From: Alphaproteobacteria bacterium
GTDB taxonomy: Bacteria > Pseudomonadota > Alphaproteobacteria > Paracaedibacterales > CAIOTO01
Direction of reading: 5' to 3'
Assembly (NCBI GenBank): GCA_947488275.1
Contig: CANKZX010000002.1
Coordinates: 337-64,336 of the forward strand
DNA: 64,000 bases
Positions 55,171 to 56,871 of the stretch are shown here, one piece after another (position 1 is the stretch's first letter; the number at the start of each line of letters is the position of its first letter). Under the pieces are notes generated by a model that was given only the letters and a program-made list of their open reading frames with translations, had not been told where the DNA came from and made no database searches. A program made the position numbers and the translations under genes.

Positions 55171-56871
55171 ATGAAATCTTTTTACACAAAGCTATTCATG
55201 TTAACATGCATTTTTGGTCTGCCATGTACGGCGAGTCTTGAACAGCAGGTAGAAAATGGTCGGCGATTCATCCAGGGTCATTATGAAGAACGTCGTGTGG
55301 CATTTAATGAGGACTTCAAAAACCTTACGATTGCGGGTCACACTAAAGCAATTGATGATCTATTAAGTGATGAAACACGCGTGCGCAAAGTCAAAATGAG
55401 CACACGTAACCTGCAAAATCATCAACAAACAATTTTAAGTGCTGTGATAGCGAAAGAACTAATTGGATATACAACAACCCCTAGAAAAGCGGGTTCTATT
55501 TATAAAGTAAAACAAAGCTCTGCGCACTTTAAACACTTTGAAATTTTACGATTGACCGAGGATTTTTCCTATCATATAGCAAGTCAATTCTATCAAAATC
55601 AACCAATCAATCACCAAGGATTACAAAAATTAATTGTTGGTGATTATGCTAAAATACTGACCTATAGCGGCATCACAAGAGACCTATTTGCGAATTGGTT
55701 TGGGGAAGTTCTTGAAGCGCATGCAACAGGTATTATAGCGAAACAAAAACCAACACCAAAACGTGCAATGCCAGTTTCCAATAGAGTCAACCAAATACCA
55801 AAAACTGACCATTATGCAAGCGCAGCATCGACCAAATCATCAGCGGCAGCAAAAGCAAAAATATATGATCCAGAATTTGATGACGATGATTATGTTGAAC
55901 AACCCATACCAAAAGCAAAACCAATTCCTTTTGATCCAAATGTGCCATTACCTCAAGAAACAGATTATCCAACGGCGGCAAATCCATATGGGGGGGCAAC
56001 AGCTGCGTATAATCCAGAATTTTATGGAGAAGGGTCTTATGATGCACCATCTTATGGCGTAGAACATAATGCTGACATGAGTGAAGAAGAGGCTATTAGA
56101 CTCGCCACACTATTAAGCATGGCAGAATTATCTCAAAACCCCGCCGGCAGAAGAACGTATCGAGCTGAAGAAACGTCAGCTTTTGGTAACGAAGAAGGAA
56201 CAAGAAAGGCTGACCAGGTATATAGAGATCGATTACTTTCGATCAACTCAAGTGAAATTTATAACCCAAATAATCCAGAATATGATGATACGGAATATCC
56301 AATCGAATTGACAGGGTTTTCGGATGGCTCTGAAGGTCATGAATTAGGTGTATATGTATCCCCAGAAGATTGTGCAGCGCAAGAACGCTTACTTGCTGAA
56401 ATTAAACAAAAACGCCAGGATGAACTAAGACTTAAAGAAATTGAACGTGCACAAAAAGAGGACGAAATTCGTCGTCGTCAGGAAAAAGAACGCCTAAAAG
56501 AATTGCAACGCCAAGAGGAAGAAGAACGCCTAGCCGCTGAGCAAGCGATAAGACCTATAAGTAACTCCCATACTGTCTCAATAAAAATTAGTGAATTATT
56601 AAATAAATTGGATAGTGCAGCCAAAGACATTAATGAAACAGACGCTGCAGAAATGAGTGTAACGATCAATCAACATACATGGACTGTTTCTGTTGAAAAT
56701 TACGCTAAATTTAAAAAACAGTTTAAAGGAACATATGACTCAGATTTACTTATTGGACCGTTTTATTCGTCTACAACTGAAAGTAGAATAAAAACCAAAC
56801 TTGCCACATACCGTTTTGAAAAAGCAGGAAGCGACATAATAGAACTAACGTTAACATTAAAGGCAAAATAA
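55171..56871 (+). CDS. signal-peptide protein: family N-domain plus acidic/aromatic linear-motif region plus UIM plus coiled coil
   Basis: N-terminal MKSFYTKLFMLTCIFGLPCTAS. N-domain blocks shared with 14466/24046/26308. MSEEEAIRLATLLSMAEL at aa 303-320. E/R/K-rich heptad region at aa 400-460. Confidence 0.85.
   Translation: MKSFYTKLFMLTCIFGLPCTASLEQQVENGRRFIQGHYEERRVAFNEDFKNLTIAGHTKAIDDLLSDETRVRKVKMSTRNLQNHQQTILSAVIAKELIGYTTTPRKAGSIYKVKQSSAHFKHFEILRLTEDFSYHIASQFYQNQPINHQGLQKLIVGDYAKILTYSGITRDLFANWFGEVLEAHATGIIAKQKPTPKRAMPVSNRVNQIPKTDHYASAASTKSSAAAKAKIYDPEFDDDDYVEQPIPKAKPIPFDPNVPLPQETDYPTAANPYGGATAAYNPEFYGEGSYDAPSYGVEHNADMSEEEAIRLATLLSMAELSQNPAGRRTYRAEETSAFGNEEGTRKADQVYRDRLLSINSSEIYNPNNPEYDDTEYPIELTGFSDGSEGHELGVYVSPEDCAAQERLLAEIKQKRQDELRLKEIERAQKEDEIRRRQEKERLKELQRQEEEERLAAEQAIRPISNSHTVSIKISELLNKLDSAAKDINETDAAEMSVTINQHTWTVSVENYAKFKKQFKGTYDSDLLIGPFYSSTTESRIKTKLATYRFEKAGSDIIELTLTLKAK

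Follow-up and report, generated by a model that had tools for sequence, protein, structure and literature searches.

Ubiquitin-interacting motifs (UIMs) of eukaryotes, such as those of the ESCRT-0 proteins Vps27, Hrs and STAM and of S5a/Rpn10, ataxin-3, USP25/28 and RAP80, comprise an acidic run followed by the pattern Phi-x-x-Ala-x-x-x-Ser-x-x-acidic, in which Phi is hydrophobic, and form a short helix within a disordered region. Among bacterial mimics of the host ubiquitin machinery, ligases and deubiquitinases are well known. For genuine ubiquitin readers of the UIM type, bacterial examples are hardly documented, and our literature search returned only the 'UIM-like' regions of PtpA and PtpB from Mycobacterium tuberculosis. 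Here we describe a UIM-type motif, MSEEEAIRLATLLSMAEL, in a protein of 566 amino acids (aa) that is predicted to be exported. Its gene lies within a stretch of 64,000 nucleotides (nt) from an uncultured alphaproteobacterium (contig CANKZX010000002.1 of assembly GCA_947488275.1), and this whole stretch is called the window below.

The M. tuberculosis proteins are among the closest described systems. Three reports describe binding of host ubiquitin by a short eukaryote-like element, which is the UIM-like region in PtpA and PtpB and a ubiquitin-associated (UBA) element in Rv1468c (PMC7608469, PMC12560355, PMC6488588). The 566-aa protein is predicted to resemble them in meeting the host cytosol and in carrying a short element of this kind. 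The M. tuberculosis elements regulate a phosphatase domain (PtpA and PtpB) or sit on a surface PE_PGRS protein, and are termed UIM-like only, whereas the motif described here occupies a linker in a modular protein that is not an enzyme, recurs across a protein family and has no sequence relationship to them. Like eukaryotic UIMs, the bacterial motifs occur singly or in tandem among relatives of the 566-aa protein. Unlike them, they belong to bacterial proteins, can have Thr or Lys directly after the alanine (Ala+1), stay below the Pfam threshold and are flanked by domains with no eukaryotic counterpart, and their binding is a prediction.

Effector repertoires of intracellular bacteria, with CE-clan and OTU deubiquitinases such as RickCE and NopD, likewise consist of fast-evolving paralogs with variable eukaryote-type modules. 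The present family evolves quickly as well, with four copies in 64 kb and a ratio of nonsynonymous to synonymous change (omega) of 0.36 versus 0.03-0.06 for neighbouring genes. In contrast to those repertoires, its members have an N-terminal Sec-type leader and a novel domain of ~170 aa, and not a C-terminal type IV or an N-terminal type III secretion signal. That modular effectors of bacteria mimic host motifs is known in general, but UIMs that recur across a family and are attached to a new N-terminal domain are not.

The 566-aa protein appears to consist, in order, of a Sec-type leader, a helical N-terminal domain (N-domain) of ~170 aa, a disordered linker, the UIM-type helix, a second linker, a long helix rich in Glu, Arg and Lys (the ER/K helix) and an alpha/beta C-terminal domain (C-domain); coordinates are collected in Table 1. 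A first-pass annotation of the window had given the sequence and position of the motif exactly. The acidic run before the core is E305-E306-E307, the hydrophobic residue at Ala-3 is I309, the alanine is A312, the serine at Ala+4 is S316, and E319 is the acidic residue at Ser+3. In P0001, an ortholog with 84% identity, the corresponding acidic residue is at Ser+2 instead. The second UIM of S5a is MTEEEQIAYAMQMSLQG, which resembles the string M-S-EEE-A-I-RL-A-TLL-S of the bacterial motif.

The fit to the pattern exceeds what the composition of the protein would predict. The Phi-xx-A-xxx-S core occurs a single time in the 566-aa protein, and a regular expression for the UIM matches 0.75% of shuffled versions of the protein when at least three acidic residues are required and 5% when at least two are required. 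Because short profiles are penalised by the local model of HMMER, an ungapped log-odds position-specific scoring matrix (PSSM) was used in its place, and this matrix was built from 13 eukaryotic UIMs only (five taken from PDB search output and eight further ones). The motif scores 19.1 bits on it, which is the top match among 66,818 aa of six-frame open reading frame (ORF) segments in the window (the runner-up scores 8.1); out of 3000 shuffled versions of the protein, none attains this score. A matrix restricted to the five UIMs from the PDB search gives 17.7 bits, a value that 2 of 3000 shuffles attain. Leave-one-out scores of the 13 eukaryotic UIMs range from 12.3 to 35.2, and the bacterial motif falls within this range.

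Three related architectures were also considered for this segment and rejected. The double-sided UIM of the Hrs type is ruled out by the absence of a second Ala/Ser register, and the inverted UIM (MIU) by the N-terminal position of the acidic run. A UBA-like three-helix bundle at aa 305-358 was dismissed because P0002, a second ortholog, lacks its second and third helices, which also contain Pro and Gly and are predicted with low confidence.

The strongest support for the UIM reading is comparative. Close relatives of the 566-aa protein are few, with two or three in an index of 5.8 billion proteins; the low-complexity helix overwhelmed the word filter of this search. P0001 retains the EEE run and the Ile, Ala, Leu-Leu and Ser residues, and differs at 8 of the 18 motif positions. 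P0002 is the positional ortholog beside uvrC in the metagenome-assembled genome (MAG) 'Alphaproteobacteria bacterium ZE-15may19-162', which is congeneric and supplies contig L001; a scan of genome contigs found a related locus in this one MAG only, and there was no record of the window protein itself. The middle region of P0002 cannot otherwise be aligned with the window protein. At the equivalent site, between the N-domain and a conserved 'S.EE.A.Q.RL' helix, it carries DDPDLQEALVLSLNES, which scores 23.5 bits. The regions flanking the motif helix are rich in indels among relatives; the first linker is unalignable with P0002, and the second is largely missing from it.

Similar motifs recur among more distant family members. 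At a threshold of 13 bits on the eukaryote-only matrix, 11 segments are found in 10 of 114 family proteins, as compared with 0.1 expected from shuffled family proteins (maximum 2 in 200 shuffles), and in 9 of these 10 proteins the motif directly follows the N-domain. In a MAFFT alignment, the window protein and P0001, P0002, P0011, P0012, P0027 and P0076 have their motifs in one block, and the Ala and Ser do not vary among eight aligned bacterial instances. The acidic run reads DD.D or EE.E in P0002, P0011, P0012 and P0027, and in these four proteins and P0097 the Ala+1 residue is Leu or Ile. Two or more motifs are present in P0012 (DEEAELQEALALSMQG and AEDDDLTTALGASFQEAE) and in P0027 (DEDDTDLAAAIAASLES and EDEDDMVRHAIQLSLG). 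The best relative on the Pfam UIM model is P0011, at 18.9 bits and E 0.0012 (threshold 21).

A profile of the eight bacterial motifs was compared with 177,635 PDB sequences, and its top matches were ataxin-3 (9.5e-9) and Vps27 (1.6e-7), with USP25, ZFAND2B, STAM2, PSMD4/S5a, RAP80, USP28 and Hrs among the further top matches. The eight instances had been chosen by a UIM-like pattern, so this retrieval is partly circular, yet the unselected flanking positions agree as well. The statistics and, above all, the recurrence at the same position in diverged orthologs and paralogs thus support the first-pass claim that this exported protein carries a real motif of the UIM type. The window motif is best called a divergent UIM-type motif; it aligns with near-canonical UIMs in the relatives and is probably homologous to them.

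The protein family is defined by the N-domain. A profile of this domain matches 109 representative clusters at E<=1e-3 among 1.84 billion proteins, and has no relative in the PDB, Pfam or NCBIfam. The window holds exactly four members, namely the 566-aa protein and the paralogs of 763, 625 and 664 aa listed in Table 1. Leave-out profiles recover these proteins mutually; the one built from the three other paralogs has the 566-aa protein as its sole match, at E 3.9e-7. N-domain identity with the window protein is 98% for P0001 and 63% for P0002. AlphaFold2 (AF2) models the N-domain as helical, in a full-length model with a mean predicted local distance difference test score (pLDDT) of 41 from a three-sequence alignment. 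Foldseek matches obtained with this full-length model were set aside as meaningless. No Pfam or NCBIfam family was found for the 566-aa protein as a whole. The sole Pfam match (DACNG, E 0.024) and the sole NCBIfam match (NarX, E 0.03) both fall on the charged helix and were rejected as artefacts of composition.

The protein is taken to be secreted because a putative Sec-type leader is seen by inspection, with a basic n-region, a hydrophobic core of 12 residues and small residues before LEQQ. Of 60 family members with a complete N-terminus, 47 pass a crude test for n- and h-regions. The leaders are unusually conserved across the family, roughly as MKxxFYLKL...HCFA. Such conservation is unlike that of ordinary Sec leaders, and may therefore reflect a route of export or sorting specific to the family.

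Beyond the N-domain, family members differ in the modules that they carry (Table 1). These include IQ, Sel1, Ank, HEAT, TPR, subtilase, OTU-like and CE-like modules, which together point to a eukaryotic target. The IQ motifs of the tandem paralogs score 21.9 bits in one protein and 37.6 bits (two copies) in the other, against a threshold of 20.3, and AAIIIQRLGRGHLARSEINK is an example. In P0026, P0096 and P0097, the UIM-type motif that precedes the OTU-like boxes is DDGPDLSAAIAASKRSL or DPTDMEEAIRRSLIDQ, and P0026 and P0096 also have a CE-like domain at the end. The 763-aa paralog has invariant His474, Asp496, Gln539 and Cys545, within SHYTVLFV, YAIDP and LQSGNMACG. Its six best Foldseek matches are CE-clan proteins (HopZ1a, a deSUMOylase, NopD with SUMO or ubiquitin, and RickCE), at E 0.05-0.17 on a low-confidence AF2 model (pLDDT 46). 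Giant proteins are present as well: in P0005 (3315 aa), P0013, P0014, P0038 and P0077 the N-domain is internal and occurs in up to three copies, and P0005 also contains DUF637 and PT-VENN pre-toxin domains, which are typical of CdiA-like secreted toxins.

We favour, with a probability of roughly 60%, the reading that the 566-aa protein is an exported, modular, effector-like protein whose UIM-type helix, located in a disordered linker, binds host ubiquitin. The uncultured alphaproteobacterium probably lives with a eukaryotic host. Ubiquitin binding, host delivery and any downstream effect are deduced from sequence, and might proceed as follows. After export, the protein would reach the host cytosol or the surface of a host membrane. 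There the exposed helix would dock, in the manner of eukaryotic UIMs, onto the hydrophobic patch around Ile44 of ubiquitin by means of an acidic cap (E305-E307) and a face formed by I309, A312, L315 and S316. Weak binding by the single UIM could tether the N- and C-domains to a ubiquitin coat or to host proteins that carry ubiquitin, and the ER/K helix would serve as a spacer. For example, the protein might recruit ubiquitinated cargo, or interfere with autophagy or with sorting that depends on ubiquitin.

A number of results weigh against this reading. The Pfam UIM model (PF02809; 17 positions, gathering threshold 21 bits), a scan with which had been proposed in the first-pass annotation, gives no match even at E<=10 to the 566-aa protein or the isolated peptide, nor to P0001 or P0002. 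A phmmer search of the PDB with the peptide returned chance matches only and no UIM. On a HMMER local model of eukaryotic UIMs the motif scores only 4.9 bits, and its PSSM score sits toward the low end of real UIMs. The fuller consensus is X-Ac-Ac-Ac-X-Phi-X-X-Ala-Phi-X-X-Ser-X-X-Ac-X (PMC8273247), and Thr313 (Lys in P0001) is a mismatch at its hydrophobic Ala+1 position. The motif is therefore not a UIM in the strict sense, as it fails on the Pfam threshold and on the hydrophobic Ala+1 residue. The earlier description of it as canonical and free of mismatches holds for the simple consensus then quoted, and gives way on the fuller consensus, the Pfam model and the score. AF2 does place a helix at aa 305-322, after unstructured aa 186-304, at a pLDDT of ~40 from the three-sequence alignment. 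As regards the predicted delivery to a host, a Sec-type leader by itself takes a protein only as far as the periplasm. Neither the OTU-like nor the CE-like region is matched in searches of Pfam (E<=10) or by profile searches of the PDB. Finally, a single UIM binds ubiquitin weakly.

These points might suit a simpler explanation, in which the segment has nothing to do with ubiquitin and is an acidic amphipathic helix, generic or arisen by chance, of a periplasmic or envelope protein; the family would then be an ordinary one of exported bacterial proteins. Besides the absence of a Pfam UIM match, the looser form of the pattern arises in about 5% of shuffles, the Sec-type leader is the sole visible signal, the adjoining genes are housekeeping genes, and the presence of a TonB-dependent receptor, PTS IIA (a phosphotransferase system component) and carbonic anhydrase does not obviously describe an obligate symbiont. 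However, a generic helix would not explain the ~100-fold enrichment of the motif across the family at a fixed position, its retention across a remodelled linker at a locus where uvrC is 93% identical, or the finding that only real UIMs top the PDB search with the bacterial-motif profile. The IQ, Sel1, Ank and protease-like modules of other family members also argue against it, and we consider it unlikely.

It is somewhat more unlikely that the motif is functional and has another partner or role. It could be a ligand of a ubiquitin-like protein such as ATG8, acting through the UIM-docking site as a modulator of autophagy, or could drive the coupled mono-ubiquitination of the effector itself. 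Ubiquitin-like proteins of autophagy do have an interface that recruits UIMs (PMC8273247), and the aromatic and acidic linkers resemble regions that hold ATG8-interacting motifs. However, the highest-scoring relatives match the classical ubiquitin-binding UIMs of Vps27, ataxin-3 and S5a, and the OTU-like protease motifs that follow the UIM in three relatives suggest ubiquitin itself. Recognition of a bacterial ubiquitin-like protein is very improbable: bacteria are reported to encode ubiquitination-like antiviral pathways (PMC10557695), but such systems are cytoplasmic while an export leader is found here, there is no E1, E2 or ubiquitin-like gene near the 566-aa gene, and the IQ, Sel1 and Ank modules of the family are typical of host-directed proteins.

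If host-ubiquitin binding by the 566-aa protein is true, its motif would provide a family-level case of a short eukaryotic linear motif kept by selection in a bacterial disordered linker amid turnover, and the unnamed N-domain family could be used to search uncultured Alphaproteobacteria for proteins directed at a host. A broader proposal, which we offer tentatively and regard as doubtful, is that the leader and the ~170-aa N-domain form an undescribed module for delivery or anchoring. The family might then be a new effector superfamily (about 109 clusters at 50% identity) of host- or protist-associated Alphaproteobacteria onto which eukaryote-derived modules are shuffled by recombination. Its UIM subfamily would be ubiquitin readers that mimic ESCRT-0 and proteasome receptors, and would be the first genuine bacterial UIMs at the level of a family.

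The locus itself appears to be a mosaic. Between the window and MAG contig L001, UvrC is 93% identical (synonymous divergence, dS, 0.70; omega 0.056), and a pgsA-like neighbour has an omega of 0.026. The N-domain of the target gene, compared with L001 4756..6144, has a dS of 0.65 and an omega of 0.36. Over the 3' two-thirds of the gene, synonymous sites are saturated (proportion of synonymous differences, pS, 0.75), a sign that recombination may have replaced this part as a module and that it did not diverge in place.

The linkers around the motif contain several short strings. AF2 assigns no secondary structure to aa 186-304, at a pLDDT below 50. The first-pass annotation had listed DPEF (aa 233), FDPN (aa 254), YNPEF (aa 280) and NPNNPEY (aa 365-371), which are all present, and had called their likeness to endocytic motifs weak. 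That caution was warranted, since they are non-canonical and not conserved: the 566-aa protein has no canonical DPF, DPW or NPF, the single NPxY (NPEY, aa 368) is NLEY in P0001, and DPEF and NPEF are altered or lost there. The linkers of the window protein contain four [YF][DN]P elements, versus 0.26 expected (P~1.5e-4, for a pattern that was defined after the data had been seen), and P0001 has five versus 0.16 expected, at partly different positions. This is not a known endocytic motif, and a search for a DNA tandem repeat underlying the elements found none. The second linker also contains YPIEL (56296-56310), which agrees with YPx(n)L, the pattern of late-domain motifs that bind ALIX. P0001 has YPIKL in its place and P0002 lacks it, and the agreement could be due to chance.

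The segment at aa 398-458 is rich in Glu, Arg and Lys, as first noted, and had been described as a heptad-like coiled coil. AF2 predicts a single long helix with a pLDDT of 68-85. Of its 61 residues, 57% are charged, and there are 14 opposite-charge pairs at i/i+4 and 16 at i/i+3. In the best heptad register only 5 of 17 a/d positions are hydrophobic, and the 3.5-residue periodicity is absent (amplitude 0.2). Because charge pairs are dense and a heptad core is lacking, the segment looks like an ER/K-type single alpha-helix and not the coiled coil first suggested. Single alpha-helix domains of this type occur in, for example, myosin VI/X and caldesmon. The bacterial segment would resemble them in being a charge-dense, isolated helix (as predicted) with no hydrophobic seam; a dimeric coiled coil is possible. 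It is dispensable in P0002, where most of it is deleted, and it is longer in P0027.

The C-domain is common to the UIM subfamily. An alignment of six proteins, including P0002, P0012, P0027 and P0076, contains invariant I, P, L, W, N, F, G, D, I and P residues. AF2 predicts a helix and five strands with a pLDDT of ~50-60. A profile of the domain found no relative in the PDB, and there is none in Pfam or NCBIfam.

Table 1. Positions of the parts of the 566-aa gene, of modules in its family and of genes downstream (nt positions are those of the window)
Feature	Position (nt)	Strand	Location in protein	Basis or remark
Whole gene	55171..56871	+	566 aa	ORF list; apparently monocistronic
Shine-Dalgarno-like AGGGG	55160..55164	+		Sequence reading; ATG 6 nt downstream
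Sec-type signal-peptide-like leader, MKSFYTK / LFMLTCIFGLPC / TAS|LEQQ	55171..55236	+		By inspection
All-helical N-terminal domain, family-defining	55237..55746	+	aa 23-192	Profile matches; AF2
Linker 1, acidic/aromatic/Pro-rich, predicted disordered	55747..56076	+	aa 193-302	AF2, composition
UIM-type motif MSEEEAIRLATLLSMAEL	56077..56130	+	aa 303-320	Statistics, AF2 helix, alignment with relatives, profile retrieval
Linker 2, with YNPNNPEY (aa 364-371) and YPIEL (aa 376-380)	56131..56361	+	aa 321-397	Low pLDDT
[YF][DN]P elements	55864-55872, 55930-55938, 56008-56016, 56260-56268	+	aa 232, 254, 280, 364	
E/R/K-rich long helix, single-alpha-helix-like spacer	56362..56544	+	aa 398-458	AF2, composition
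C-terminal alpha/beta domain, common to UIM subfamily	56545..56868	+	aa 459-566	Alignment, AF2
Terminator-like hairpin and T-run	56951..56967	+		Pattern match only; 80 nt past stop codon
CE-clan-like (Ulp1-type) H-D-Q-C domain in 763-aa paralog	14466..16757	+	aa ~470-550	Motif; Foldseek
Tandem paralogs, 625 and 664 aa, IQ calmodulin-binding motifs	24046..25923, 26308..28302	+		Pfam
Sel1, Ank, HEAT, TPR, subtilase modules				Other family members
OTU-like Cys/His boxes G[TD]G[ND]CGF ... NAHYDLLV			After UIM-type motif in P0026, P0096, P0097	Motif level
Tyrosine integrase	57712..58938			Part of putative mobile element
DUF7146/Toprim primase-like gene	59910..60944			Part of putative mobile element
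AAA_25/HTH gene	60941..61933			Part of putative mobile element
SocA/Panacea antitoxin-like gene	62499..63083			Part of putative mobile element

The window is alphaproteobacterial chromosomal DNA with ~40% G+C, and the genes around the 566-aa gene are housekeeping genes. The gene forms a divergent pair with uvrC (53129..55003, minus strand). Downstream of it are tRNA-Ser(cga) (57467..57556) and then an integrase gene.

Elsewhere in the window, a permuted two-piece transfer-messenger RNA (tmRNA) of the alpha type is found at 37338..37750 on the minus strand (Rfam RF01849, 214.6 bits). The tag peptide assigned by ARAGORN, GGSLVSANRNRRRAANGNRRRSDVRKAA, is of unusual length and basicity, and the call may be wrong. 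The region directly downstream of the UIM gene, at 57467..63083, looks like an integrated mobile element that starts at tRNA-Ser(cga) and carries the last four genes of Table 1. At the end of the window, the G+C content falls to 33%.

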